Origin: a virus
Reading direction: 5' to 3' (one strand)
DNA: 64,000 nucleotides
IMG/VR virus record: IMGVR_UViG_3300043395_004142
Shown here: positions 1,977 through 61,987 of the stretch, one piece after another
Layout: each line of letters begins with the position of its first letter
Position numbering within the stretch: the stretch's first letter is position 1
The notes under the pieces: generated by a model
The model's database searches: none
What the model was told of the DNA's origin: nothing
Seen by the model: only the letters and a program-made list of their open reading frames with translations
Position numbers and translations under genes: made by a program

Positions 1977-2063
1977 TTCTCAACTCCCTGCAAATGAAGG
2001 TTGAGCGGGCCCCTTACACCAAGCTCCTTCGCCGAGGAACCAATTTGGTGTAAGAGATGGCCC

Positions 2064-3068
2064 ATGTTCCTTCGTGGGATCAACTTTGGCCATGTCCTAA
2101 ACGCCTCAGGTGCACGCGGGTTTTTTGGGGAGGCGTATTGGTTTCACCGCTACTTTCGCCCCTTTGGCCTTGATTACGCGGGCTCAACCCTCGTCTGCAA
2201 AACAGTGACAGCGGATCCTCGGGCGGGGAACATGCCGCTCGATGAAGGGTTGCAACCGCGGGAAGCGATCCCCAAGTGCATCGTGGTTCGACCCTGGAAA
2301 GGTGTCGCACTCAATGCTGTGGGCCTTTCGAACCCTGGGGCGGAAGCCTACTTGGAGCGGGTGGTCGCGCTCTCTTCTTCGCGAGCCATGGGGGATCCGT
2401 TCATGATGTCCTTCATGGCGGTTCACCCGGAGAGGCCCGAGCGGCTTGCGGAGATCATCTCGTTCGACGCCACCCTGCGCAAGTACATAAGGCTCTTGCG
2501 GCACAGGAAGTTCGGCATTCAGATCAACCTTTCGTGCCCCAACGTCGGGCTCGACCCGGCCGGGCTCTTGAAGGAGGGGCAGCAAGCGCTGACCATTCTT
2601 GGGCAGCATAAGGTCCCGCTCCTCGTGAAGATCAACGCGCTCGTACCCCCAGACGTAGCGGTGGAACTAGCGGCGCACCCTGCTTGCGATGGTCTCGTGT
2701 GCTCGAACACGATCCCGTGGGGGAAGATGGCGGACAAAATCCCCTGGAAGAAGCTCTTTGGAACCGAGACTTCGCCCCTTGCGTCACTTGGAGGTGGCGG
2801 GCTATCCGGGAAGCCTTTGCTCCCCATCGTGCGCGATTGGGTCTATGCCGCGCGTGGCTCTGGCTTCAAAAAAGCCATTGTGGCCGGCGGTGGCGTCCTA
2901 TCCAAGGCGGACGCAGACTCCCTCCTGGACGTAGGTGCGGACGCGATTGAACTTGGGTCCATCTCCATGCTCCGACCGTGGAGGGTTCACGGAGTCATCC
3001 AGCAGATCAATCAACGCTTCGAGCACGGTGTTGACCCGTACACGACAACAGAAAGTACCACCCCATGA
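2064..3068 (+). CDS. pyrD: dihydroorotate dehydrogenase, family 1 (Cys active-site base)
   Basis: Motifs LNASGxxG, NAVGLSNPG, NLSCPNV (catalytic Cys) and GGG..L...DA..L.GA match class-1 DHODH. The ORF track begins at TTG 2001, but ATG 2064 fits the conserved N-terminus. The stop overlaps the pyrC start (ATGA). Confidence 0.8.
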   Translation: MFLRGINFGHVLNASGARGFFGEAYWFHRYFRPFGLDYAGSTLVCKTVTADPRAGNMPLDEGLQPREAIPKCIVVRPWKGVALNAVGLSNPGAEAYLERVVALSSSRAMGDPFMMSFMAVHPERPERLAEIISFDATLRKYIRLLRHRKFGIQINLSCPNVGLDPAGLLKEGQQALTILGQHKVPLLVKINALVPPDVAVELAAHPACDGLVCSNTIPWGKMADKIPWKKLFGTETSPLASLGGGGLSGKPLLPIVRDWVYAARGSGFKKAIVAGGGVLSKADADSLLDVGADAIELGSISMLRPWRVHGVIQQINQRFEHGVDPYTTTESTTP

Positions 3069-4111
3069 CCCCCATGACCCCCGTGACAATCCGACGCCCC
3101 GACGATCTGCATGTTCATCTCCGCGAAGGAGACATGCTCAAGAGAGTAGCCCCCTATACAGCAGAGCTATTCGGGCGGGCCCTCATCATGCCCAACACCT
3201 CAAAGCCCATCGTCACAGCCGAGGATGTGAACCGCTACCGAGGAGAGATCCTTCAGGCCACACAAAAGCATCGGTTCCAGCCCCTCATGACGATCAAACT
3301 CCTCGACCGCACTACCCCCCAGATTGTGCGGGAGGCAAAACTCGCAGGGGCGGTTGCCGGCAAGCTCTACCCCGCGGGCGTGACCACCAACTCAGACGAC
3401 GGGGTCAGGTATATACAAAGTCTCTACGATACCTTTGAGGTTATGCAAGAGGTCGGGATGGTTCTTTCGCTTCATGGGGAGGCCCCGGAGGCGTTCTGTC
3501 TTGACCGGGAAGAGGCGTTCCTAGGTATCCTCAAGGACATTGCGAAGACGTTCCCGCGGCTTCGTATTGTCCTTGAGCACGTGACAACGAACGCTGCGGT
3601 GGAAACCGTCCAGGCTCTACCAGAAACGGTGGCGGCGACGATCACGGCGCACCACTTGGTCTTGACGCTTGACGATGTTGTCGGCGGGAAGATCAACCCA
3701 CACAACTTCTGTAAGCCGCTCGCGAAGAGGCCCGCGGACCGATCCGCGCTTATTGAAGCCGCTTTTAGTTACTCGCCCAAGTTCTTCTTTGGGACAGACT
3801 CGGCGCCGCATATACGCGAGACGAAGGAGTGTGCTGCGGGTTGCGCGGGTTGTTTCACGGCGCCTCTTGCTTTGGAGCTTCTGGCCCATGTAGCGGACGA
3901 GCACGGGTTATCTTTGGAGGGCATTCAAGGTTTTACTTCCGAGTATGGTGCGCAGTTCTATGGGCTTCCATTGAACGAGGGGATGGTGACATTCGTCCGT
4001 GAGCCTTGGACGGTCCCTGATGTCCTTGACGGCGTAGTTCCCTTTTGGGCTGGGCAGACGCTTAATTGGAGGTGCAAGTTCCTGCACGGGGGGCCTTTCT
4101 ATAGCGCGTAG
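3065..4111 (+). CDS. pyrC: dihydroorotase, type II (E. coli-like)
   Basis: DLHVHLREGDM, MPNT, KLYPAGVTTNS, HGE, TAHHL and FGTDSAPH are diagnostic class-II DHOase motifs. The gene is about 348 aa. Confidence 0.85.
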   Translation: MTPMTPVTIRRPDDLHVHLREGDMLKRVAPYTAELFGRALIMPNTSKPIVTAEDVNRYRGEILQATQKHRFQPLMTIKLLDRTTPQIVREAKLAGAVAGKLYPAGVTTNSDDGVRYIQSLYDTFEVMQEVGMVLSLHGEAPEAFCLDREEAFLGILKDIAKTFPRLRIVLEHVTTNAAVETVQALPETVAATITAHHLVLTLDDVVGGKINPHNFCKPLAKRPADRSALIEAAFSYSPKFFFGTDSAPHIRETKECAAGCAGCFTAPLALELLAHVADEHGLSLEGIQGFTSEYGAQFYGLPLNEGMVTFVREPWTVPDVLDGVVPFWAGQTLNWRCKFLHGGPFYSA

Positions 4112-34916: not shown

Positions 34917-35540
34917 TCACCCGGCCGCTGACGCCTTCTTCTCCCGCCCCCTGCGCTTATAGATACCCTTTACAATGTCCAGGTAAGGATCGAGCATGTA
35001 GAAGTTTGACCAATCACAGATAGGGATAACCAGGTGATCTCCCCATCCGGCTGAATCGATCGCGTCCCAGATCCGTCCTCTCTGGTCCCACTGCCTCTGG
35101 CTGATGTGCGATGGTCGGTCCGTATTGTTCCAATAGGCATAGTCCTCAAGACGCTTGTCTCGTTTGAGAAAATCCAGCGCCTTACACATCAAAGAGTCGC
35201 AGTGAGGTATAACGTAGAGGCGGTCAGCGTGCTCGCGAATAGCCACGCACACATCAAAGTTGAAGGTGTCGCGTTCAAGCTTGCCGAGCTGAGCGCGATA
35301 CATCTCACGTATAGCGTTTCCAACTATGCGTAACCGGGCTATTTCTTCGTCACCGTTATAGACGGCCAAGGTCTTCTGATATGCCTCGGACTTGGTATCA
35401 ACCCCGTCCAGCATAGTCTTATACAACTTGACCAACTCCTTCTTGACGTTCTCCTCACCCCTCCGCCGGGTATCTCGAACGAAAGGCCATAAGTGGCGAG
35501 AGTCCTTGAGCCGGTAAGCGACATAGATCTTTGTGGACAT
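34917..35540 (-). CDS. hypothetical protein
   Basis: 207 aa, non-biased. Confidence 0.5.
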   Translation of the reverse strand: MSTKIYVAYRLKDSRHLWPFVRDTRRRGEENVKKELVKLYKTMLDGVDTKSEAYQKTLAVYNGDEEIARLRIVGNAIREMYRAQLGKLERDTFNFDVCVAIREHADRLYVIPHCDSLMCKALDFLKRDKRLEDYAYWNNTDRPSHISQRQWDQRGRIWDAIDSAGWGDHLVIPICDWSNFYMLDPYLDIVKGIYKRRGREKKASAAG

Positions 35541-35637
35541 AAAGGCTCATTACACCGAGCCGCTGATTCTGCCCGAAAAGTCCTTTAGTGTGCCCGTTTG
35601 TCGGGCAGTCGGTGTATTTGGAGGGCAGCGAGATCCC

Positions 35638-37077
35638 ATGAAGCGTTCGCGGAAACTCTACGTCCACGAGGAAGTCAACGAGGGGAAGATATCCTCTCTC
35701 GACGATCTCCACGTCGAATACCGTCGCTACCTCCAAGCCTGCATCGATGCGATGCTCGCCGCTCATCGAACCATCATCTCTCGCAAGGATCTCCTCGACT
35801 TCTTCCCACCCGAGTCCGTCCTCTCCACCAACATCGTCGCGGCCTGCCAACAGCACGCCGTCGCGATCGTCTCCGGGTGGGCTATCTCTCGCTATACGAA
35901 TCACGTCAAGAAGGCGATCCAACGATTCGCTCGTGAGGACGTCATCGACGAACCCACGAAGATCCAGCTCTTCACAATCGGAAAGTACAACCTCGACAAG
36001 CCCACCAAGACCATCTCCCAAGAGGCGCTCGACCTCTATTGGACGCTTTTGCTCGACGCCGGGAAGGCCCCGACGGTTTCAAGTCGTGTTGGGATCCGAA
36101 CCTCGATCCATACGAGCGATCTCCGACTCAACGAAGACACCTCACTGACTCCCTGGTGGCTGGGGTTCTCCGGCCTCGCAAAAGGCAAGAGAACGTGGCT
36201 TCCTCTCAAAGCCAATCCGTTCGTGAAGTCACCCAAAGATGTCACGAAGGGATGTCTCCTCAAACGAGATCGAAAGGGGAGATGGCGCGTCGAGGTCGTC
36301 GAGACGAAAGAGTACGAAGTCCCCGATCCGCTTCCCGACGCGCCTCGTCTCGGGATGGATGTTGGCCTCAACGTCATCGCTGCGACGAGTGACGGGCGAC
36401 TCTTCGGAGAAGCGGTCAAATCCAAGTTTGACGTTCTCTACGGGAAGATGCGATCGACGCGAGCGAACCGACAGAGACAGGGATTGAAAGAGAACTCGGC
36501 GAGGTTGGATAGCCTCGAAGACCGTTTGAGCGGGTTCATCAAGACCGTCACGGGAACGATCGCGAACGATCTGATCAAGAGTCACCCTGCACATGTCTTC
36601 GTCCTAGAGGATCTCGATCTTCGGGGGTGTCGCGGGCAGAAGAGGTTCGCCTATCGAGCGCTTCATCGTGCGTTGAGTATGAGGACACTCACGATCGCGA
36701 TAAACGCGGCGTACACGAGTCAGATGTGCCCTTCTTGTGGGTACGTCTCGCGAGGGAACCGAACTGGAGTCAGGTTTATCTGCCGCAGTTGTGGCAGGAA
36801 AAGTCATGCGGATGTGGTGGGAGGGATCAACGTGCTCGGACGTTCCGAGGACACACACGTTGGTCTCGACGATCATCCTTCCGAAGTGAAGGCTTTGTTA
36901 AGAGAGCGATACCGCGCACGTAGGCGGGACAGTTCCTCAAGAGAGCCCGAAGTAACCGCGCTGCTAGCTTGCAGCCGAAGGCTTACTACGCGGGGATCTC
37001 CCTCGGGAGACACGCGCACAGCCTTGAACGCCTATGGTATTTCTCGGGCAGTCCCACCTCTTGGCGGGCACCCGTGA
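35638..37077 (+). CDS. tnpB: TnpB-like RuvC nuclease (IS200/IS605 OrfB, IS1341-type)
   Basis: RuvC-I GMDVGLN, RuvC-II VFVLEDLDL, zinc finger AYTSQMCPSCG...CRSCG, and RuvC-III HADVVGGINVL are present. GGAGGG sits upstream of ATG 35638. Confidence 0.8.
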   Translation: MKRSRKLYVHEEVNEGKISSLDDLHVEYRRYLQACIDAMLAAHRTIISRKDLLDFFPPESVLSTNIVAACQQHAVAIVSGWAISRYTNHVKKAIQRFAREDVIDEPTKIQLFTIGKYNLDKPTKTISQEALDLYWTLLLDAGKAPTVSSRVGIRTSIHTSDLRLNEDTSLTPWWLGFSGLAKGKRTWLPLKANPFVKSPKDVTKGCLLKRDRKGRWRVEVVETKEYEVPDPLPDAPRLGMDVGLNVIAATSDGRLFGEAVKSKFDVLYGKMRSTRANRQRQGLKENSARLDSLEDRLSGFIKTVTGTIANDLIKSHPAHVFVLEDLDLRGCRGQKRFAYRALHRALSMRTLTIAINAAYTSQMCPSCGYVSRGNRTGVRFICRSCGRKSHADVVGGINVLGRSEDTHVGLDDHPSEVKALLRERYRARRRDSSSREPEVTALLACSRRLTTRGSPSGDTRTALNAYGISRAVPPLGGHP

Positions 37078-39932: not shown

Positions 39933-41951
39933 GTGCCCATCTCCACACCCCTTAGGATGGCACGGTACGCCGAGACTTATGCGACCTATGTAGGCATGAG
40001 CACAGCTTTTCGTGTCGCGCACCGGTATCTGGCCGCCGCAAAGTATGACCACATTGACTTCAAACCACCGAAAAGCGTTGCCGAAACAGCGGCAAAAGGC
40101 TTGGAGTACCGCAAGAAGCAGACTGACAAAGCCGGTCTAACCCCCTCGGAAGCCTCGAAAGAGGGCATTGGTTCTGGGGTGCAACGGGCGGTGAATCTGA
40201 AAAACCGGGACAATGTGAGCCCCGAAGTTATCCGTCAAATGAGTGCCTTCTTTGCAAGGCACGAAAAGAACAAGAGCATCTCCCCCGAGCATCGCAATGA
40301 GCCGTGGAAAGACAAAGGCTACGTGGCTTGGTGCCTTAAGGGGGATACGGACGTTCTCTTGGCCGATGGAACTTGGCTACCTATCTCCAAGATCGTTGAG
40401 GACAAGCTGAGTGTGAGGGTCTGGTCCTACAATGAGGCGACCAAGACCTTTGAACCGAAAAAAGTGGTCGGATGGAGTGTTGCCCCCGCAAGCCTTGAGG
40501 ACTTCTACATCGTCGGGAAGCACAAGACAATGCGGCAAGGTATCAGTGATCGCACTTTTCTGGCCGCTACCGCCGAACACCCATTTTACGTAGAGGGGGA
40601 ATGGGTTGAGGCTAAGGACATGAAAGGGCGTGTTCTTAGCATCGTAGATCGGGGCCTGGACCCGATCTCGGAACAAGTCCTTCTCGGTACCCTTCTTGGA
40701 GATGCTTACATTTGGAAGTCTAGTGACAGTGCGGGCACGCTTCGCATGGCCCACGGGTCTGACCAACGAGAATACCTGCATGAAAAAACTCGCCTACTAC
40801 ACCCGTTAGTCTGTAGTCAGTTTGACACTCCTAACGAGAGTGGTTTTGGGCGAATGGGATTGGTAAAGTGCTGCACTTATACGGCAAGCACGCTCTACCT
40901 AAGTTACATCCGTGATCGTTTCTACGACGAGGAGGGTGTCAAGAGAGTTACCCCCACACTATTGAGGTCACTTGAAGACGTTGGAGTAGCCTTTTGGCTC
41001 ATGGATGATGGGAAACTCAAATTCTCGGAGAGAGACGGCCACTCCTCATGGATTCTGCATACCGAAGGGTTCGATGAAGAAAGTGTCGAAAACATCGTAC
41101 AATTTCTGAGGGGCCGTTATGAAATAGATGCTCGCGCCCAAAGGCGGGAGAACACGGACGGATCCACCGTATACTTTACCGTAGAAGGTACTCGGAAGAT
41201 GATGGCTCGGCTAGCACCCTTCTTCCACCCCTCTATGCGCTACAAGCTACTACCCGAATACCATGACGTTCCTTACGTATTAGCGGATCATTCCCCAAAA
41301 AGCGAGTTGGTGCTGTGTCCCCAACCTGTGACTCGGTTTGGGAAAGCTACGGATGAATACACAAGCAAGGCCGCTCGGAAGCCGTATAAATGGGAGTGGC
41401 GGTATAACCTTGAAGTGGAAGGCAACCACAACTTCATCGCCAATGGGGTGCTGGTTCACAACTGCCTTTGGGGCGGAGACCCTGGCAAAGCCTGGGCGGA
41501 CAAGATCAAAAAGCAGATGGAGGCCGCCGACCAAAAGACCGCGTCCCTTGGTGCAGGGGCCCTCACCCATGAATTGATGAACGATCTGGCTTCCGCCTAC
41601 CGGGGCAAGCGTATGCGCGATGCTATCCGTGACATGGAGCTTGCCGAGGTGCCCCAGGTAATGGCCGAAGAAGTCTACCGCAAGGTAGGGCAACACGCCG
41701 ATGAGGTTCGCGGTAACCTCCACCGTCTTCTCTCAGGCGTGCGAGTCGAATTCGAAGGAGGAGACCGGCCTGGCTGGGTCTGCTCCGACGAAACCGGCAC
41801 CATCTTCGTCCCGGCAGACGGAAGCCCTCCTCCACACGGAGGCTCGATCGCTCTTCGATCTGTAGCGGGCGCTATGCACGAATGGTGCAAAACCGATGTC
41901 CTGAGATATGGTGGTGCGAATCTCACAAAGATGATGAAGTCCACGGAGTAA
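39933..41951 (+). CDS. hypothetical protein interrupted by a LAGLIDADG intein
   Basis: Exteins total about 295 aa (res 1-133 and 511-672). Predicted spliced junction: ...KDKGYVAW|CLWGGDPGKAWADKI. Confidence 0.6.
   Translation: MPISTPLRMARYAETYATYVGMSTAFRVAHRYLAAAKYDHIDFKPPKSVAETAAKGLEYRKKQTDKAGLTPSEASKEGIGSGVQRAVNLKNRDNVSPEVIRQMSAFFARHEKNKSISPEHRNEPWKDKGYVAWCLKGDTDVLLADGTWLPISKIVEDKLSVRVWSYNEATKTFEPKKVVGWSVAPASLEDFYIVGKHKTMRQGISDRTFLAATAEHPFYVEGEWVEAKDMKGRVLSIVDRGLDPISEQVLLGTLLGDAYIWKSSDSAGTLRMAHGSDQREYLHEKTRLLHPLVCSQFDTPNESGFGRMGLVKCCTYTASTLYLSYIRDRFYDEEGVKRVTPTLLRSLEDVGVAFWLMDDGKLKFSERDGHSSWILHTEGFDEESVENIVQFLRGRYEIDARAQRRENTDGSTVYFTVEGTRKMMARLAPFFHPSMRYKLLPEYHDVPYVLADHSPKSELVLCPQPVTRFGKATDEYTSKAARKPYKWEWRYNLEVEGNHNFIANGVLVHNCLWGGDPGKAWADKIKKQMEAADQKTASLGAGALTHELMNDLASAYRGKRMRDAIRDMELAEVPQVMAEEVYRKVGQHADEVRGNLHRLLSGVRVEFEGGDRPGWVCSDETGTIFVPADGSPPPHGGSIALRSVAGAMHEWCKTDVLRYGGANLTKMMKSTE
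40332..41462 (+). mobile_element. intein (377 aa) with LAGLIDADG homing-endonuclease domain
   Basis: Block A CLKGDTDVLLADGTWLPISKIV. LAGLIDADG-like LLGTLLGDAYI and AFWLMDDGKL. C-terminal EVEGNHNFIANGVLVHN followed by +1 Cys. Confidence 0.8.
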
Positions 41952-50162: not shown

Positions 50163-51086
50163 ATGGCTATCCTTCGGCACCTCATCTCAATCAACGACCT
50201 GACACCCGATGAAATCAAAAGTCTCTTCTTCCACGCGAACCTACTCCGAGGGTGCGAGCACCTCTGGGACCCCTTACAAAAGAAGCCCCTAGCCGGCAAG
50301 ATCCTCGCCTGCCTCTTCTACGAGCCCTCGACACGAACGAGCAGCTCGTTCATCGCCGCTATGGCACGCCTTGGAGGCACGGTCATCCCCATTACGCAGG
50401 GCGTCCAGTTCTCTTCTGTGTCGAAGGGCGAGACCCTGGAGGATACGATCCGCACCCTCGGACAATACGCCGACGCCATCGTCCTCCGGCACCCCGTAGA
50501 AGGATCCGCGAAGTCCGCTGCTGCGGTCTCCCCTGTTCCCGTGATCAACGCGGGCGACGGAGCCGGAGAGCACCCAACGCAGGCCCTCTTAGACCTCTTC
50601 ACGATGCGTGACGTGAAGCATGACCTCGAAGGAAAGACTATCGCCCTCGTCGGGGACCTCCTCTACGGGCGGACCATTCACTCCCTCGTGCGCCTCCTCC
50701 CACGAGAAGGCGCCAAGCTCATCCTCGTGAGCCCACCCGAACTACAACTCCCCATCGAGCTACGAAGCTTCGTACCTGCGGACACCGTAGAGGTCCATAG
50801 CCTCGGTGACGCCATCGAGCACGCGGACATCGTATACATGACCCGGGTCCAGAAAGAGCGCTTCCCCTCTCTGGAAGCCTACGAGCATGTAAAAGACGCC
50901 TGTGTACTCACGCGCGCCCTTATGCAGAGGGCCAAGCCCGATGCGGCCATCATGCATCCATTACCACGCGTAAATGAGATCGAACGCGAGATCGATGACG
51001 ACCCTCGCGCCGTCTACTTCACACAGGTCAGGAACGGCATGTTCGTTCGTATGGCCATCCTCCAAAGACTCATCCAACAACAATAA
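50163..51086 (+). CDS. pyrB: aspartate carbamoyltransferase catalytic subunit
   Basis: EPSTRTSSSF (STRT motif), GEHPTQALLD (HPTQ) and MHPLPR (HPLP) are present. 307 aa. GAGGGG SD upstream. No pyrI follows. Confidence 0.85.
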   Translation: MAILRHLISINDLTPDEIKSLFFHANLLRGCEHLWDPLQKKPLAGKILACLFYEPSTRTSSSFIAAMARLGGTVIPITQGVQFSSVSKGETLEDTIRTLGQYADAIVLRHPVEGSAKSAAAVSPVPVINAGDGAGEHPTQALLDLFTMRDVKHDLEGKTIALVGDLLYGRTIHSLVRLLPREGAKLILVSPPELQLPIELRSFVPADTVEVHSLGDAIEHADIVYMTRVQKERFPSLEAYEHVKDACVLTRALMQRAKPDAAIMHPLPRVNEIEREIDDDPRAVYFTQVRNGMFVRMAILQRLIQQQ

Positions 51087-54243: not shown

Positions 54244-56658
54244 TTACGTCCCTGTAACGCTCTTCCAGCCGGCTGTGGTCTTGAAGTAGATCTTGTTGTT
54301 TGCAGCATCCACTGCGATGGCTCCTTGAGGGGGCGCAGATGGGAACGAGCTATCACTGACTGCACCTGCGATGGCAGGGAGGACTGGAGCTTCGTTCGTG
54401 CGGTTACCGTGTATGAAGTCATCGGTTGAACTAGAGAGGACGAGCCCGCTCTCCATATTCATACCGATGTTGTCGAACACCATGTTATGAGAACTGAAGG
54501 TAGAGTCGCTTTGAAACATATATTTCAAGTGACCCGTCACGTCGCGCTCCGCAGAGTTCGCGGGATCCCCTGCGATGAAAGGTCGGTTCGCAACAAGGTT
54601 TCGACAGATGACGTTGTATGAGGAGGACTCCTCCTCCCAGTTGCACGATTCTCCATTTACTCCCGCGGCGTTCGTATAAGTAACCGACGTAGTAGTAGGT
54701 ACCGTCAGGATGGTGAAGACACCGTTATTCCCAGGGGATGGAGCCCCTGTAACCTTGATCTTCGCCCCCACGTCTGCGGCAGCTTGATCACCGGATGTAA
54801 GCATCAAGGTAATGGTTGATCCGCTCTTGGCGATCATCGCGGTGCCTGTCTTCGGGGTCTCGAAGTGGATCGCGGATCCAGAAGCGCCTGAGGAGTTATC
54901 CTTGTTGCAGTCAAGGATAGTATTCCCGTCAACCAGACTCCGGTAAGTACGCTTACGAACGCGAATGCCAGAGCGATCACACATCTCGACAATGTTGTTC
55001 TTCACCGTAACGTGAGAAGCACGGCTGATCGAGATCCCAATTCCATTACCGCCGCCCTCACCAGAACCAGTGCCCTTCACGTCCGCGGCACCTGTAGCGA
55101 TATTCTTGATGTGTCGAATGACGTTGCCTTCGACAACGCACCCAGAACCGATGAAAGTAGGTGCGGAGGATGAGGCATGGCCTATCTGGATGCCTCCAGA
55201 GCACCTTTCGATTGAGCAGCCCACGATGCGGCAAGACTTCCCACGCATTAAGATGCCGGCGTTGTCGCAGTTGCTAGCCGTGCACCCCATGATATGAACA
55301 CCCTCACACTCCGCGTGCGTGCTGAACGCAGCCGCGGTCGCGTGACTCACCACGATCCCAGAAACGACCATCCCGCGGACAACCCCGAAGCCGCTCACAG
55401 GAGAAGACGGCGCCGCCCACTGGCCCGTGTCGACCCCGTGCCGGACGCGAGAGATAACTGAGTCGGAGACCACGATGTTCTCGGAGGCGTTGCCCACGAG
55501 GATCCCGTACCCGTACTCCCCCGATGTACCAGAGAAGTCCCATAGGTCATGGATTCGACAATCGCGGACTTGCGTACTGACACTTGACTCAATGACAACC
55601 CCCGGGCCGTCATTGTTGTGGAGATAGACGTTCTCAACGGTCCCGTTGAGAACGCGCCTCATACTGATGAACGGCGGGGCCCCATCCCGCGTTCCGTCCG
55701 TTGCGAGCTGGAACATCTCCAGGTTGCGGATGGTCACGTTCTTTACGAACGCCATCCGATAAGCCCGAGCAAGATCCGTCACGAGATACTCGTCTCGTGC
55801 ACCCGCACCATAGAGTGTCAGAGTAGGACCCGACCAAGCTATCGAGCCGTTGTTCACATCTGTTCCGGTAAGCCCCGAACGAGGGTTATATAATGTGATC
55901 TGTGTGCCAGGCCCATTCACGGACAGAATGAGAAAGGTTCCATTCTGGTTCGAATTGCTGGCCCCAGAGATAGTGATTGTATACCCTACGTCGGTTACAG
56001 AGTTGAATCCGGACACGTTAGAGAGGGTGACCACCTTATTGGAGTAGGCCGTGATACTCGCCCCAGAGCCGTTCCGGTTGATGCCCTTGTTAACGACCTT
56101 GATATACTCACCACGCTTGCGACCCGAGAACGCCGTGTCCTCCCATAGAGCCTCGGAGAGTAGAAACAGGTAGTCGTCGCGTTGGATGGCATCCACGTCC
56201 CCGCTCGGTGACACCTTAATGGTCGTCTGACCATGAAAAGCATCAGCAGTCAGGTTGATCAGAGAACCAGTAGTTGCCCCTATGGCTCCGATGACGTGAT
56301 TGAGAGTGTTCGGGAAGGTAAGACCCGCTACTACCTTGGTCTTCCCCATCCCTGAGCCTTCCAGAGTGATGTTGTCCTTCAAGTTGACCATGTCCGTGTC
56401 GATCACGAACTGGCCTGGAAGGAGAAGCACGGTGCCACCGTGTTTCGAGCTATCAGTGGCAGCAGAGATCGCGTCGTTGATCTCCACCTCGTCCTGAACC
56501 CCATCGCACACGAAATCCGCCTGGCTCCCAGCCGGACCCACGGTCACGACGTTGTTTGGCCGGACCTTGGACGCCCAGATCGAGCCGTTCCAAAAGAGGG
56601 ACGGATTGAGCGGCGGGCCCGGCGGGGAGATATAGGGCATGGGGACGAGTCCTTTCAA
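54244..56658 (-). CDS. right-handed beta-helix (pectate-lyase-fold) tailspike-like protein
   Basis: 804 aa. Repetitive beta-helix rungs rich in G/N/S/T/V and Ile/Val (e.g. NNIVEMCDRSGIRV, GNVIRHIKN, ILMRGKSCRIVGCSIE). The N-terminal ~100 aa differ and may be a virion adaptor. Confidence 0.55.
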   Translation of the reverse strand: MKGLVPMPYISPPGPPLNPSLFWNGSIWASKVRPNNVVTVGPAGSQADFVCDGVQDEVEINDAISAATDSSKHGGTVLLLPGQFVIDTDMVNLKDNITLEGSGMGKTKVVAGLTFPNTLNHVIGAIGATTGSLINLTADAFHGQTTIKVSPSGDVDAIQRDDYLFLLSEALWEDTAFSGRKRGEYIKVVNKGINRNGSGASITAYSNKVVTLSNVSGFNSVTDVGYTITISGASNSNQNGTFLILSVNGPGTQITLYNPRSGLTGTDVNNGSIAWSGPTLTLYGAGARDEYLVTDLARAYRMAFVKNVTIRNLEMFQLATDGTRDGAPPFISMRRVLNGTVENVYLHNNDGPGVVIESSVSTQVRDCRIHDLWDFSGTSGEYGYGILVGNASENIVVSDSVISRVRHGVDTGQWAAPSSPVSGFGVVRGMVVSGIVVSHATAAAFSTHAECEGVHIMGCTASNCDNAGILMRGKSCRIVGCSIERCSGGIQIGHASSSAPTFIGSGCVVEGNVIRHIKNIATGAADVKGTGSGEGGGNGIGISISRASHVTVKNNIVEMCDRSGIRVRKRTYRSLVDGNTILDCNKDNSSGASGSAIHFETPKTGTAMIAKSGSTITLMLTSGDQAAADVGAKIKVTGAPSPGNNGVFTILTVPTTTSVTYTNAAGVNGESCNWEEESSSYNVICRNLVANRPFIAGDPANSAERDVTGHLKYMFQSDSTFSSHNMVFDNIGMNMESGLVLSSSTDDFIHGNRTNEAPVLPAIAGAVSDSSFPSAPPQGAIAVDAANNKIYFKTTAGWKSVTGT

Positions 56659-56889
56659 GGAACACGTCCCGCAAAAAGGCTATCGACCGACACTGACCGA
56701 TGTTAACGCCAGGGGTGATCTTCGGGAGCGGACCCCGTCATTGATCGGGGTCCCACGGCCACCCTCACGGTCAGCTTTATCGACGTCGAACCATTGCATA
56801 CCTGCCTCTACACCGTGACAGGAACTCGATCCCAAAAACATCTCTCTCGGTTGGGATCGTGGGTCGGATTCGTCGTAGGGATCCTCAAG

Positions 56890-59800
56890 ATGAAAAACCG
56901 TTACCCTGGCAAGTGCGGCAAATGCGGCGTCAACGTTCCCGTGGGTGCGGGTGACTGGACCGCGGGGGTTACCACCTGCGCTGCGTGTGGTGGTGCACCC
57001 AAGGCTGAGGAGAACCGGGTCCGGTTTACCCTCGCCGGGCACCAGGCGGCCGTGAAGCCCCTGGGTTACCTCGACAGTAAGTTCAATGACTACCGAGCGG
57101 CCGTGAATGGTAGCCGGTTCGACGGCAACACGAAGTCCTACCTTGTAGACTTCGACAAGGTCGCGAAGGTCGTTGCGGCGCTTCAAGCCGCCGGGTTTGT
57201 CGTGGATGTCTCTCCAGAGGTGGCCGCACGGGCACAGGCAAAGGCTTCTCAAATCCACGTCGATGTCGCAGGGGCGGATCTCCGAGCGGACAAGGCGGAT
57301 GAGATTCTCCGTAAGCGGGGGCTGTATCTCTTCCCATTTCAGCGGTCGGGCGTCAAATGGCTCGCCTCCCGTACCGGGGCCTTGCTCGCCGATGAAATGG
57401 GGCTCGGGAAAGCCCAGCCAATCTCCGAGCCCGTCCTCACTCCATCAGGTTGGCGTCCTATCGGGGATCTCCGTGTTGGAGACGAGGTGATTGGCTCAAA
57501 CGGTTTGCCTACCAGAGTTACGGGCGTGTTTCCGCAAGGCGCGAAGGAAATCTTCGAAGTCACCCTGACGGACGGTGCGAACACGAGATGTTGTGAGGAG
57601 CACCTGTGGAGCGTTCAAACGCCGAATGATCGATTCCGTGACGGAAAACATCGAGTTATGTCGCTCAAAAATATCATGGAGAGCGGGCTCCAACACACGT
57701 CTGGGTTTAAGTGGTTCGTACCGGTAGTCGAACCGGTTCAGTTCTCGGAGAAAGAATTTCCCGTGCACCCTTACGTGCTAGGAGCGCTCATCGCGAACGG
57801 CAATTTGGGAACTTCGACGCTTCACAGTGGTCAGGCTGAACAACGCTCGATGATGGCGCCTTATCTCCCGAATGGCTTGAGCTTTAACTTCTCGGAAGGT
57901 GTTACCTATCGCATTGCGACGGAACATGCTGGTGTCCCAAACCAGCTAACCCGATCGATTGAAGCGCTCGGCCTCCAATTCACCGAGAGTCACACCAAGT
58001 TCATCCCCGGAATGTACCTCTTCGGATCAGTACAACAACGCCGGGATCTGCTCGCTGGTCTTATCGACAACGACGGCACCATCTCCAAGGACGGCGCGAC
58101 CATCGAGTACAACACAGTGTCACCTCAATTGGCTAAAGATGTGGTCGCTCTTGTTAGATCACTAGGTGGATCTGCGTGGGTGTCAACTCGAATCCCGAAG
58201 TACACTTACAAAGGAGAGAAGAAAGAGGGGAAGGTCGACTATCGGATCCGTATGGCTCTTACATTCTGTCCCTTCCGAGTGTCTTGGAAGCTTGATCGAT
58301 ACGTGCCTCGGTCCAAGTACCCCCCGGCGCATGCAATTGAATCTATCAAACCCATCGGAACCGAAGAGTGTGTATGCATCTCTGTAGATGCTGCCGATCA
58401 TCTGTACGTGACCAAGGACTATATTGTCACGCACAACACGATCCAGGCGCTGATCTCGATCCCGGAGGGAGTCCCCGTGCTCGTGATCGGCCCCGCGGTG
58501 GCCAAGGGCGTATGGGCGCGTGAAGCCGCCAAGTGGCGCCCGGACCTCAAGGCCAACGTCCTCTCGGGGCGGGGTTCCTTCCGATGGCCCGAGCCCGGTG
58601 AGATCCTGATCACGAACTACGACATCCTGAGTGACCTCCCTGAGACCGAGGTGGCTCCGGCGAATGTCGTCGTGATCGCTGATGAGGCCCACGCGGTCAA
58701 GTCGACTAAAACAGGCCGAGGAAAGCGCTTCCGGGTCATCTCTACCCTTGCCCGCAAAGCTGGGGGGAAGGTTTGGCTTCTTACGGCAACCCCTCTCCTG
58801 AACAAGCCCACGGAGCTTTGGAGCATCCTTGGGGCGGCGGGCCTCTCGACCGAGGCTTTCGGATCGTGGAAGAACTTCGTGGGGGTCTTCAACGGGCACC
58901 AGGACGACTACGGGTATGTATGGGGAACTCCCGATCGTGAGGTTATAGGAGAGCTTCTGCGCAAGGTCCAACTTCGGCGCCTTCGCGCTGAGGTGCTTCC
59001 TGACCTGCCCACCAAGCAGTGGCGTGAGATCCCTGTCACCCTCGATAGCAGCACTCGTAAGCAGTGTGACAAGGTTCTGGAAGCCCTGGCCAAAGGTGCT
59101 TCGAAAAAGAAGGTCAAGGGATCAGACCTGACGGCGGAGCAAGCGGAAGCCTTGCTCACGGATCTCGGAGCTATCTCCTCCAAAGACTGTCCTGCGTTCG
59201 AGGAGATGGCGAAGGCTCGTGCCGCCTTGGCGAAAGCCAAAATCGAGGCGATGCTTCAAATCGTCGAGGAGTACGAGGAGCAGGAAGAACCCCTCGTGGT
59301 CTTCTCGGCCCACCGCGCCCCCATCGATCTCTTGGAGGGTCGTGAGGGGTGGGCGGTCATCACGGGTGATACTCGCCCGGAGGACCGCACGAAGATCGAG
59401 GATGCCTTTCAACGTGGAGAACTTCGGGGCATTGCTTGCACAATCAAGGCGGGGGGTGTAGCTATCACCCTCACTCGTGCTTCTCATGCGCTTTTCGTAG
59501 ATCTGGAGTGGACCCCGGCACTCAACGCGCAGGCGGAGGATCGGATCTGCCGCATCGGACAGTCGCGAGGGGTGATCATCACTATCCTTGTAGCAGATCA
59601 CCCCCTCGACATAAGGATCGCACAGCTTCTCGCTCAGAAGCGAGTCTACATTGAGGGGTCCGTGGATGCGGCCCGCTTGGTCAATGGGGTAGACCCTGAG
59701 ATTCCGGTCATGCCGGAGATAGACTTTCAGGCTCTTGCGGCCAAGGCCGCAGAAGAAGCCGAGAAAGCCGAGAGGGCACTTCTTGCCTCGAAGGAGCGTC

Positions 59801-60129
59801 AGGCCCTTTACGAGGCGGAGAAGGCAGCGGCACAGGCCGCTAAGCGTGCAATCCGTGAAGACTTGATGGCTCCCGGCCGTCGACCGGCGAAGACGGCTCG
59901 TGAGGAGTGGGCCGCGGAAGCTCTAGGGATCCTGGCGGGTATGGATCCGGATCGTGCCCGTGAGCAAAATGGGATTGGTTTCAATGGGGCAGATGGACAG
60001 ATGGGGCACAATCTTGCCCGTCAAGTGTATCTCGGTTTGACTGAGGCACAGTGGCAGCTCGCCTTGGAGATTTGCCCCAAATACTGGCGCCAGGTAGGTC
60101 GTCCCCCAGCAGAGAAAATTGAGTCATGA
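56890..60129 (+). CDS. SNF2-family DNA helicase with N-terminal zinc ribbon, interrupted by an intein in motif I
   Basis: CGKCG...CAACGG ribbon. LADEMGLGK|intein|TIQALI reconstitutes DEMGLGKT. Further along: DEAH-like VVIADEAHAVKS, LLTATPLLNKPTELWSIL and helicase-C QAEDRICRIGQSRGV. The ORF track offers an upstream GTG/TTG at 56794. Confidence 0.75.
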   Translation: MKNRYPGKCGKCGVNVPVGAGDWTAGVTTCAACGGAPKAEENRVRFTLAGHQAAVKPLGYLDSKFNDYRAAVNGSRFDGNTKSYLVDFDKVAKVVAALQAAGFVVDVSPEVAARAQAKASQIHVDVAGADLRADKADEILRKRGLYLFPFQRSGVKWLASRTGALLADEMGLGKAQPISEPVLTPSGWRPIGDLRVGDEVIGSNGLPTRVTGVFPQGAKEIFEVTLTDGANTRCCEEHLWSVQTPNDRFRDGKHRVMSLKNIMESGLQHTSGFKWFVPVVEPVQFSEKEFPVHPYVLGALIANGNLGTSTLHSGQAEQRSMMAPYLPNGLSFNFSEGVTYRIATEHAGVPNQLTRSIEALGLQFTESHTKFIPGMYLFGSVQQRRDLLAGLIDNDGTISKDGATIEYNTVSPQLAKDVVALVRSLGGSAWVSTRIPKYTYKGEKKEGKVDYRIRMALTFCPFRVSWKLDRYVPRSKYPPAHAIESIKPIGTEECVCISVDAADHLYVTKDYIVTHNTIQALISIPEGVPVLVIGPAVAKGVWAREAAKWRPDLKANVLSGRGSFRWPEPGEILITNYDILSDLPETEVAPANVVVIADEAHAVKSTKTGRGKRFRVISTLARKAGGKVWLLTATPLLNKPTELWSILGAAGLSTEAFGSWKNFVGVFNGHQDDYGYVWGTPDREVIGELLRKVQLRRLRAEVLPDLPTKQWREIPVTLDSSTRKQCDKVLEALAKGASKKKVKGSDLTAEQAEALLTDLGAISSKDCPAFEEMAKARAALAKAKIEAMLQIVEEYEEQEEPLVVFSAHRAPIDLLEGREGWAVITGDTRPEDRTKIEDAFQRGELRGIACTIKAGGVAITLTRASHALFVDLEWTPALNAQAEDRICRIGQSRGVIITILVADHPLDIRIAQLLAQKRVYIEGSVDAARLVNGVDPEIPVMPEIDFQALAAKAAEEAEKAERALLASKERQALYEAEKAAAQAAKRAIREDLMAPGRRPAKTAREEWAAEALGILAGMDPDRAREQNGIGFNGADGQMGHNLARQVYLGLTEAQWQLALEICPKYWRQVGRPPAEKIES
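57412..58437 (+). mobile_element. intein (342 aa) with two LAGLIDADG motifs, Ala at position 1
   Basis: Starts AQPISEPVLTPSGWRPIGDLRVGDEV (block-A-like). LGALIANGNLG and LLAGLIDNDGTI. Ends YIVTHN with +1 Thr, the T of GKT. Confidence 0.7.
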
Positions 60130-60921: not shown

Positions 60922-61263
60922 CTAGGGTCGGGGGGATACGCCGAGTCCGGCGTACTGGATCGGGGCGTGAACCCACCGGAGAAACGCCTTCTGGCCCATA
61001 GCTTCCCGAATCTTAGAGAGCCGGGCGGCGGTCCATAGGAAGGAATGATCCCCGCGGATATAGTTGCAAACCCAATGGGCGGGCGCGAGGTTCCATTTCT
61101 TGTCGGAGCCCCCACAAGAAAGGGGAATGAGGTGCTCGACGGTCAGATTCCTCGTGATGATCTCACCGCAGAGAACGCAGCACCCATTGAACAAACGCAT
61201 CAACCCGCGCCGCAAACACACCTGCTGCTTGTCGTTGCGCGGTCGCTGACGGGAGCGTCCCAT
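60922..61263 (-). CDS. HNH endonuclease
   Basis: CVLCGE...LTVEHLIPLSCGGSDKKWNLAPAHWVCNYIRGD is a canonical HNH Cys/His/Asn arrangement. ATG 61263 lies 7 nt after the upstream stop; the ORF track extends to 61317. Confidence 0.65.
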   Translation of the reverse strand: MGRSRQRPRNDKQQVCLRRGLMRLFNGCCVLCGEIITRNLTVEHLIPLSCGGSDKKWNLAPAHWVCNYIRGDHSFLWTAARLSKIREAMGQKAFLRWVHAPIQYAGLGVSPRP

Positions 61264-61270
61264 CGACTTC

Positions 61271-61987
61271 TCATGGTTTGGGGGGTAGCGCCTTCGACTT
61301 CTTGCCCGGTAGACCACGTGCGTTCGCTTTCATGTTGGCTTCCGCTTCCGCGATGCGTGCCTTACGACGCGCTTCGATGGCATCCTGAGTGCCCTGAGAA
61401 AGAACCTTGTGGGCGCGGTTGAAGGCGATACTGATTGTCTCGTCGCACACTCGGCCTGGGACCGGCTTCTTGGGATCCAAGGTCGGGTTGGAGATGTCGA
61501 AGAGGCTGTCCGAGAGCCGAACGACCCCGCCCCCCGTAACCGGGAAGAGGAGGGTTAGACCGATGACACGCTCTTCATACGTCATACGATCGCTGCGGAA
61601 GGCACTGCGAACCGTGACCTTATACCCGCTCGTCGAAAGGGCCACGAGTTCGAGCCCGGAGACCCCTTGAGCATTGAACATGAGGTCGAAAGGGAGCCAA
61701 TAGTCCAGGGCCTCAAAGCCGGACTCCCCTTCAATGGGATACGATTGAAGAGGTTCTAGTTGATGGTTCTGAGGTTCTCCGTTCTGTAGGTCTGCAACGA
61801 AGGAAAACAGCACACCCCCATCTGAGACCCCGCCACGTCGAAGGGTCTGGATACGGAAGTGCTCGGGGGCATCCGCGGGGTTGAGAACAGGTCGTGGGGC
61901 CGAGGCTTGAAGAAGCATAGGCGCTGTACTACACTTTCTGCGTGGCTTTGCCTGACAAATAGATTGATCCTTTGTTTGACCCGACAT
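61271..61987 (-). CDS. hypothetical protein
   Basis: 238 aa, non-biased. Confidence 0.5.
   Translation of the reverse strand: MSGQTKDQSICQAKPRRKCSTAPMLLQASAPRPVLNPADAPEHFRIQTLRRGGVSDGGVLFSFVADLQNGEPQNHQLEPLQSYPIEGESGFEALDYWLPFDLMFNAQGVSGLELVALSTSGYKVTVRSAFRSDRMTYEERVIGLTLLFPVTGGGVVRLSDSLFDISNPTLDPKKPVPGRVCDETISIAFNRAHKVLSQGTQDAIEARRKARIAEAEANMKANARGLPGKKSKALPPKP

Follow-up and report, generated by a model that had tools for sequence, protein, structure and literature searches.

A probable class 3 intein with an alanine start in the Walker A loop of a SNF2-family helicase gene from a phage-like genome

How is an intein that begins with alanine expected to splice, if it splices at all? The question is raised by a gene for a SNF2-family helicase in the virus record IMGVR_UViG_3300043395_004142 (IMG/VR), a stretch of 64,000 nucleotides that was analysed as a whole and is referred to here as the window. 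An earlier reading made from the letters alone (the sequence-only reading) had placed an intein at 57412-58437, in the P-loop GKT of the helicase, and had proposed that, with Ala instead of Cys or Ser as its first residue, it would either follow a class 2-like route or be defective in splicing. The comparisons described below point to another answer: the insert is very probably a class 3 intein, the type characterized by a Trp-Cys-Thr (WCT) triplet, with a PI-SceI-like LAGLIDADG domain, residing in the SNF2 Walker A loop of a phage-like genome. Because in this class a Cys in block F, and not residue 1, initiates the reaction, Ala1 represents the normal state of the class and not a defect.

The location of the insert proved to be exact to the base. 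The host gene is a single, stop-free and uninterrupted open reading frame (ORF) on the plus strand, 56794..60129, which encodes 1111 amino acids (aa) from the mechanical TTG given in the ORF list, the likely start codon being the ATG at 56890, which gives 1079 aa. The insert, of 342 aa (AQPISEPV...DYIVTHN), lies in frame between the Lys and the Thr of SNF2 motif I (DEMGLGK/TIQAL, with the slash marking the junction), and the protein across both junctions reads ...LLADEMGLGK/AQPISEPVLTPSGW...DYIVTHN/TIQALISI... The Ala start, the HN end and the Thr that follows are read directly from the DNA: at the N-junction, AAA (Lys, 57409-57411) is followed by GCC (Ala1, 57412-57414) and, at the C-junction, AAC (Asn342, 58435-58437) is followed by ACG (Thr+1, 58438-58440), this Thr+1 being the Walker A Thr. 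All the strings quoted in the sequence-only reading (AQPISEPVLTPSGW, LGALIANGNLG, LLAGLIDNDGTI and HN/T) are present. The parts of the gene are as follows.

56890..60129, plus strand: SNF2-family helicase precursor gene (N-extein, intein and C-extein), with the start inferred at the ATG (ORF list, Pfam, homologues)
56890..57411, plus strand: N-extein, 174 aa from the ATG, ending in ...LLADEMGLGK with Lys-1 of Walker A/motif I (translation; junction compared with 120 homologues)
57412..58437, plus strand: the insert, assigned here as a probable class 3 intein of 342 aa, Ala1 to Asn342 (Pfam, homologues, alignment of 111 copies, family hidden Markov model (HMM), AlphaFold2, Foldseek)
58438..60129, plus strand: C-extein, comprising Thr+1, the remaining SNF2 ATPase core, Helicase_C and a C-terminal tail (ORF list, Pfam, homologues)

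When the insert is taken out, DEMGLGKTIQAL is restored (DEMGLGK/T), and the intein-less junction would read ...GGGCTCGGGAAA/ACGATCCAGGCG... The precursor has both domains of a SNF2-family host, since Pfam recognizes SNF2-rel_dom (3.3e-20) in one match that bridges the insert (aa 182-759), as well as Helicase_C (2.2e-11), and motif I is rebuilt once the insert is removed. The N-terminus of the N-extein bears, in translation, a CxxC...CxxC segment reminiscent of a zinc ribbon. The spliced sequence, of 737 aa, matches PHROG 62 'DNA helicase' at 2e-88 and retrieved 2523 homologues, the best one at about 52% identity. Identities among the top 120 are about 45-55%, and most of these proteins have 720-780 aa and no insert; with homologues of this length it aligns over 99% of its extent at about 50% identity. 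At the junction point, 110 of the 120 closest homologues show a contiguous GxGKT[IVLAM], and four more (P0086, P0103, P0111 and P0116) carry a homologous insert at the very same point. Given the splicing predicted below, the gene is one functional SNF2 helicase and not a broken gene or a fusion.

The class of the intein was derived from its conserved blocks, and the conservation counts given here refer to an alignment of 111 full-length intein copies. Homologous inteins reach E-values of 1e-139 to 1e-40, and the family HMM scores the insert with 435 bits. The positions that matter are these.

57412..57453, plus strand: block A (AQPISEPVLTPSGW), with residue 1 being Ala, a non-nucleophile (111-copy alignment)
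57601..57609, plus strand: block B His64-Leu65-Trp66, the His being B10 and the Trp B12, the 'W' of the WCT triplet (both 111/111)
58375..58377, plus strand: Cys322, block F position 4 (F4, in ECVCISV), predicted initiating nucleophile and branch point (Cys in 111/111)
58429..58437, plus strand: block G Thr340 (G5, the 'T' of WCT), His341 (G6) and Asn342 (G7, cyclising) (each 111/111)

Class 3 inteins were defined by the combination of B12 Trp, F4 Cys and G5 Thr, with the block F Cys, and not the +1 residue, attacking first (PMC2807308). The role of the F4 Cys in this pathway has been described in detail (PMC2807308, PMC7664689), and mutational work proved that it is obligatory in the class (PMC2807308, PMC3196547). 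All the corresponding sequence features are found in the insert: a residue 1 other than Cys, Ser or Thr, B10 His and B12 Trp, F4 Cys, G5 Thr followed by His-Asn, and Thr+1. Moreover, His64, Trp66, Cys322, Thr340, His341 and Asn342 are invariant (111/111 in each case), the WCT triplet is common to all 111 relatives, and the +1 residue is Thr or Ser in every relative whose junction was listed. The Ala at position 1, which had been taken for an oddity, is in fact the majority state of the family (97 of 111 copies); Glu, Gln, Ser or Gly stands there in the others, apart from three rows that have a gap. Judged by these sequence features, membership of class 3 is almost certain.

This assignment received further support from comparison with proteins of known structure. 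The five best matches in a PDB sequence search (E-values from 1.5e-12 to 2.4e-8) were 6riz, 6qaz, 6rix, 6riy and 6bs8, the best one (1.5e-12) being the WCT-engineered gp41-1 (6riz). His64-Leu65-Trp66 aligns with EEHLW of 6riz and with HQW of the class 3 MchDnaB1 intein 6rix, and Cys322 aligns with the F4 Cys, engineered or natural, of these two proteins. The AlphaFold2 model of the intein, built from an alignment of 30 sequences, has a pLDDT of 94.2 and a pTM of 0.92. Searched as a whole against the PDB with Foldseek, it matched PI-SceI and the VMA inteins (E-value 1e-17, TMq 0.66-0.68), and its splicing domain matched the class 3 mini-inteins 6bs8/6rix and 6riz (TMt 0.80-0.84).

By analogy with the mechanism established for class 3, splicing would proceed as follows. 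The thiol of Cys322 would attack the Lys(-1)-Ala1 peptide bond, giving the thioester-linked block F branched intermediate, with His64 and Thr340 assisting Cys322 in a protease-like Cys-His-Thr triad against which Trp66 would pack (after PMC7664689). The N-extein would then be handed over to the hydroxyl of Thr+1, cyclisation of Asn342 would free the intein, and an O-to-N acyl shift would rebuild the Lys-Thr bond, yielding an intact DEMGLGKT P-loop and an active helicase (after PMC2807308). The unspliced precursor, with its Walker A loop split, should lack ATPase activity, as argued by analogy with the P-loop inteins considered in PMC6195587. Productive splicing of this copy is likely in view of its sequence: both exteins are full-length and recognized by Pfam, and the splicing domain, when compared with the two closest relatives for which DNA was available (P0086 and P0001, used for both domains), shows a nonsynonymous divergence (pN) of 0.18-0.23 and a synonymous one (pS) of 0.76-0.79. 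Both domains of the intein, the endonuclease included, are under purifying selection, with pN at about 0.22 and pS at about 0.8 in the intein.

A number of observations weigh against this picture, concerning either the class of the intein or its activity. The standard Pfam intein-splicing models stayed below threshold on the insert (Hom_end_hint, 19 bits versus a cut-off of 32), the class 1 wild-type gp41-1 (6qaz) appears among the same five best PDB matches with a similar E-value, and the N-terminal half of the insert is about equally similar to class 1 gp41-1 and to class 3 DnaB inteins. The WCT triplet is not sufficient to guarantee activity, as the engineered gp41-1_WCT fails to splice (PMC7664689), and Arth_1007, a class 3 relative found in nature, is a dead pseudogene, albeit one without the F4 Cys and the B10 His (PMC3196547). 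Decayed copies exist in the present lineage as well, because the host of P0001, the closest relative (65% identity in the intein), has a C-extein of only 47 aa. This host (L001 10001-11719; also L002-L004) has a 178-aa SNF2-like N-extein, a search of its contig for further C-extein homology found none, a gene on the opposite strand overlaps its end, and it may be a decayed gene like Arth_1007. In addition, the splicing route favoured for the protein of the window is one suggested by comparison with its family. Taken at their strongest, the insufficiency of the WCT triplet, Arth_1007 and the truncated host of P0001 would speak for a splicing-defective or decaying intein, with the P-loop permanently split and the host being a pseudogene or a precursor with a non-ATPase role, and the replacement of a catalytic Asp of the endonuclease by Asn129, a departure from the family consensus, could be read in the same sense. 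However, the 3.2-kb ORF contains neither a stop nor a frameshift, none of the splicing residues invariant in the family has been lost (the F4 Cys and the B10 His, missing from Arth_1007, included), the SNF2 and Helicase_C motifs are all kept in both exteins at Pfam significance, and pN lies far under pS in the splicing domain. For these reasons the splicing-defective version contemplated by the sequence-only reading is not favoured, and we regard it as improbable.

The class 2-like route suggested by the same reading fares worse. It would correspond to that of the KlbA inteins, where a direct attack of the +1 residue on the N-terminal scissile amide leads to a single standard branched intermediate. 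Ala1 is indeed common to KlbA inteins and, as models of class 3 inteins place the hydroxyl of Thr+1 close to the N-junction (at 5.2 A in that of MP-Be; PMC2807308), its direct attack is geometrically not impossible. Nevertheless, class 2 inteins combine Cys+1 with motifs that otherwise resemble those of class 1, among them Asp at F4, lack the WCT triplet and are known only in KlbA, whereas the intein of the window has Thr+1, Cys322 at F4, Trp66 at B12 and a SNF2 host, and both Cys322 and Trp66 are invariant in the 111 relatives. The attack of a hydroxyl on an unactivated amide is, furthermore, chemically unfavourable, and in the prototype with the same signature the change of the F4 Cys to Ala or Ser stops all reactions, but N-cleavage continues without Thr+1 (PMC2807308). 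With the full Trp-Cys-Thr triplet, which defines class 3, a class 2-like reaction is very improbable here. Another way to dispose of the Ala would be to assume that the boundary was mis-drawn and that a standard class 1 intein starts in reality at a nearby Cys, Ser or Thr, as Ser5 and Thr10 lie near the start. Position 1 does not hold one of the three residues expected for class 1, and no other boundary fits the intein-free homologues; any shifted start places extra residues into GLGK-T, contiguous in 110 of 120 of them, and across dozens of host genes that are unrelated to each other the family alignment has the N-terminus at Ala1, with the Walker A Lys or Arg immediately before it. A start at Ser5, considered as a shifted class 1 boundary, was rejected because it would leave 'AQPI' within the P-loop, a situation seen in no homologue. 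The comparison of the junction with the homologues, which yielded no shifted start with a sensible junction, thus already refutes a mis-drawn boundary, to which we give next to no weight, and the class 3 assignment with Ala1 as the first residue is retained.

The homing-endonuclease domain contains the only slightly unusual feature of this intein. Its landmarks are listed here.

57712..58311, plus strand: LAGLIDADG homing-endonuclease domain, about aa 101-300, inserted in the HINT fold (Pfam, phmmer, Foldseek)
57778..57804, plus strand: LAGLIDADG motif 1 (LGALIANGN), with Asn129 (57796-57798) at position 8 in place of the catalytic Asp (111-copy alignment)
58048..58077, plus strand: LAGLIDADG motif 2 (LLAGLIDNDG), with the catalytic Asp221 (58072-58074) kept (aligned with the block E region of PI-SceI)

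Within the insert, Pfam detects Hom_end (3.7e-8) and LAGLIDADG_3 (6.4e-6), both above their cut-offs, phmmer finds a match to PI-SceI (7e-6) over aa 185-282, and in the Foldseek search the endonuclease part of the model matches I-DmoI, besides the matches to PI-SceI and the VMA inteins. Pfam and the model agree on two LAGLIDADG helices in an alpha-beta-beta-alpha-beta-beta-alpha pseudo-dimer fold, and the match of the AlphaFold model to PI-SceI at an E-value of 1e-17 confirms that a LAGLIDADG fold is predicted. The double-LAGLIDADG core that had been announced therefore stands as a two-motif domain, but its first motif is without the catalytic Asp, so that an acidic residue occupies position 8 in only one of the two motifs (Asp221). 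The alignment shows how the two positions vary: position 8 of motif 1 is Asp in 99 copies, Asn in 9 and another residue in 3, and the catalytic position of motif 2 is Asp in 106 of the 111. The Asn in motif 1 also occurs in the closest relatives inserted at the SNF2 site (P0001, P0086, P0103 and P0116), and similar 'IANGN...DNDG' copies are present in other hosts, namely L085, in a DnaB-like gene, and P0023.

In LAGLIDADG endonucleases, the acidic residue of each motif serves the active site for one strand, and when this Asp is changed to Asn in I-CreI or PI-SceI, the strand concerned is no longer cleaved. Owing to this role of the acidic residues, Asn129 predicts a nickase or a binder that does not cleave: the endonuclease of this copy may nick rather than cut, or may no longer cleave, and full double-strand cleavage by the element is doubtful. 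Simple decay is not the obvious reading, because the endonuclease domain (pN 0.21-0.26, pS 0.74-0.86) is as constrained as the splicing domain. This domain would be the means by which the family spreads into intein-less alleles.

Additional cysteines are found by the splicing active site, Cys60-Cys61 in block B (57589..57594) and Cys320-x-Cys322 in block F (58369..58377), and in the class 3 intein Msm DnaBi1 the catalytic Cys forms a regulatory disulfide (PMC6195587). A combined idea, modelled in its second part on Msm DnaBi1, would be that the SNF2-site sublineage (the copy of the window, P0001, P0086, P0103 and P0116) keeps a constrained nickase or non-cleaving endonuclease and that the cysteines flanking Cys322 make splicing conditional on redox state or zinc. 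We consider this double proposal rather unlikely as a whole.

The relatives of the intein are found in a variety of hosts. A search with the 342-aa insert alone retrieved 44 proteins, with E-values down to 1e-139, in which the element directly follows the Walker A Lys, or the equivalent Arg, of unrelated NTPases: PhoH (MRGR/T), DnaB-like proteins, AAA/RecA-like proteins and thymidylate kinase (GCGK/S). In GenBank phages it also occurs in genes annotated as terminase large subunit, and by tblastn 845 GenBank phage records match, 300 of them from Mycobacterium phages, with PhiPA3 gp233 and many jumbo phages also among them. When species-representative bacterial genomes were scanned with a 5-row intein-only alignment, 177 relatives emerged. 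The same SNF2-site element (DDMGLGK/AQPL...VTHN/T[IV]QTL) is present in Deinococcus yunweiensis, D. rufus and D. rhizophilus, in seven Hymenobacter species or metagenome-assembled genomes (MAGs), and in Capsulimonadaceae, a Dehalococcoidia MAG and Fimbriiglobus. What follows the intein in the Deinococcus and Hymenobacter loci is homologous to the C-extein of the window (25-29% identity over about 400 aa, E-values 1e-20 to 1e-28), and such homology is detectable in the other SNF2-site loci too (1e-14 to 1e-22). The closest helicases of cultured phages are only 29-36% identical, and a megablast of window positions 40000-64000 against GenBank phages gave no match. An exact-sequence look-up of the precursor protein in the assembly collection likewise returned no entry. 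Among the SNF2 homologues, larger ones with 65% coverage (P0050, P0071 and others) were checked for second intein sites and none was found. The inserts of 65-207 aa seen in P0050, P0071, P0102, P0128 and others follow query aa 225-251, in a variable loop that separates motif Ia from motif II, and were rejected as inteins because intein ends are absent.

The composition of the intein (GC 53%, with 58% at third codon positions, GC3) differs from that of the exteins (GC 60-62%, GC3 67-71%), which is consistent with a foreign origin. Relative to its homologues, the intein is 66-69% identical in amino acids, compared with 41-52% for the extein. However, synonymous sites are saturated in intein and extein alike (pS 0.67-0.83), so the higher identity of the intein reveals constraint and not necessarily recent homing, and for the same reason an attempt to date the horizontal transfer from the divergence of intein versus extein was rejected. 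The intein alone also matches the PHROG families 'terminase large subunit' (1.6e-37), 'DnaC-like helicase loader' and 'DNA primase', as well as the NCBIfam model 'replicative DNA helicase', because these families include intein-bearing members. Intein sequences therefore contaminate family annotations and are a source of mis-annotation.

Regarding the genomic context, the window consists mostly of ORFs without a family match or belonging to phage-only families of unknown function. Its recognisable genes encode an HNH endonuclease, an exonuclease, an ATP-dependent DNA ligase, a TnpB-like protein, a beta-helix protein and three pyrimidine-synthesis enzymes, and a class 1 intein is also present. 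Close intein-free homologues of the helicase are found on contigs of similar gene content, one of them 620 kb in length, and the window likely derives from a large phage or prophage. This context fits the phage origin put forward for class 3 inteins (PMC3196547). A search with the family HMM found no second class 3 copy elsewhere in the window. Other features observed in it are listed below.

40332..41462, plus strand: a second intein, of class 1 and 377 aa, in ORF 39933..41951 (KDKGYVAW/CLKGDTDVLL...ANGVLVHN/CLWGGDPG), with a LAGLIDADG_2 endonuclease (Pfam LAGLIDADG_2 6e-25, Intein_splicing 7e-7, PT-HINT)
35533..37077, plus strand: ORF of 514 aa with a Cas12f1-like TNB domain (Pfam 1.6e-11), probably a TnpB/IS200-IS605-type element
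2001..3068, 3065..4111 and 50163..51086, plus strand: pyrimidine-biosynthesis-like genes, for a dihydroorotate dehydrogenase, an amidohydrolase (dihydroorotase-like) and an aspartate/ornithine carbamoyltransferase, the gene for the last one matching also a PHROG family
60922..61317, minus strand: free-standing HNH endonuclease gene, just downstream of the helicase (PHROG 5.7e-12)
54244..56658, minus strand: right-handed beta-helix protein of 804 aa, upstream of the helicase and divergently transcribed

Class 3 inteins and the SNF2 motif I site were known already, and what is new is this member of the family. The main value of the analysis lies in correct annotation, in that the Ala start signals neither a defect nor a new splicing chemistry. 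The locus is a further instance of the class 3 inteins that occur widely in ATPase genes of phages or of phage origin, with Walker A loops as their targets, and the replacement of Asp by Asn conserved at one active site of the endonuclease offers a small lead for the study of LAGLIDADG nickases or of the intein life cycle.

Several known systems can be set beside the intein of the window. PI-SceI (the Sce VMA1 intein) shares with it the association of a HINT splicing domain with a two-motif LAGLIDADG endonuclease (Pfam Hom_end) and gives the best fold match to the whole model, but it is a class 1 intein (Cys1, Cys+1), only about 16% identical, and has both catalytic Asp residues. The class 2 KlbA inteins (e.g., Mja KlbA) share with it Ala1, because of which the first acyl shift is impossible in them, and differ by their Cys+1, the Asp at F4, the lack of the WCT triplet and their restriction to archaeal KlbA (PMC2807308, PMC3196547). 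The class 3 inteins Msm DnaBi1 (Mycobacterium smegmatis, 6bs8) and Mch DnaB1 (M. chimaera, 6rix/6riy) rank among the best matches of the splicing domain in sequence and in structure (E-values 7.5e-10 to 2.4e-8, TMt 0.80-0.84), and both have the WCT triplet and a P-loop insertion. However, these are mini-inteins without an endonuclease domain, and control by redox or zinc was demonstrated for Msm DnaBi1 only (PMC6195587).

Among SNF2 hosts, gp233 of the Pseudomonas jumbo phage PhiPA3, a 'putative SNF2 domain helicase' (HQ630627.1), has at the same Walker A position GK/T an intein homologous to that of the window, with 36% identity over 342 aa (AAGTGK/AQPLTSMV...CQCIQV...FIVTHN/TYMTS), although the protein belongs to another SNF2 subfamily and the record carries no intein annotation for the insert. 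The Snf2 intein of Deinococcus radiodurans is, like that of the window, a class 3 intein in a SNF2-family helicase; according to the accounts given in PMC3196547 and PMC5222942, it is one of three class 3 inteins experimentally shown to splice efficiently (Brace et al. 2010), and it was in this one that the block F branched intermediate was detected. Its likeness in insertion site is drawn from other Deinococcus species, the D. radiodurans sequence not being among the loci compared: these relatives (L024, L026 and L045) share with the window the motif I site (DDMGLGK/AQPL...VTHN/T[VL]QTL), Ala1, HLW, QCI[SA]V and THN/T, their inteins being about 43% and their exteins about 28% identical to those of the window, and they reside in a bacterial chromosome rather than in a phage-like genome. 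Asn129 in LAGLIDADG motif 1 further sets the copy of the window apart from the Deinococcus case. Finally, the DnaB intein of Mycobacteriophage Bethlehem (MP-Be), the class 3 prototype, has 341 aa, His65, Trp67, Cys320, Thr339, His340, Asn341 and Thr+1 (PMC2807308), a layout nearly superimposable on the 342 aa, His64, Trp66, Cys322, Thr340, His341, Asn342 and Thr+1 of the window. Both inteins begin with a non-nucleophilic residue, contain a LAGLIDADG domain and interrupt a helicase/ATPase in a phage host, and they differ in that MP-Be has Pro1 after Gln-1 in a DnaB-type helicase, whereas the intein of the window has Ala1 after Lys-1 in a SNF2 protein.

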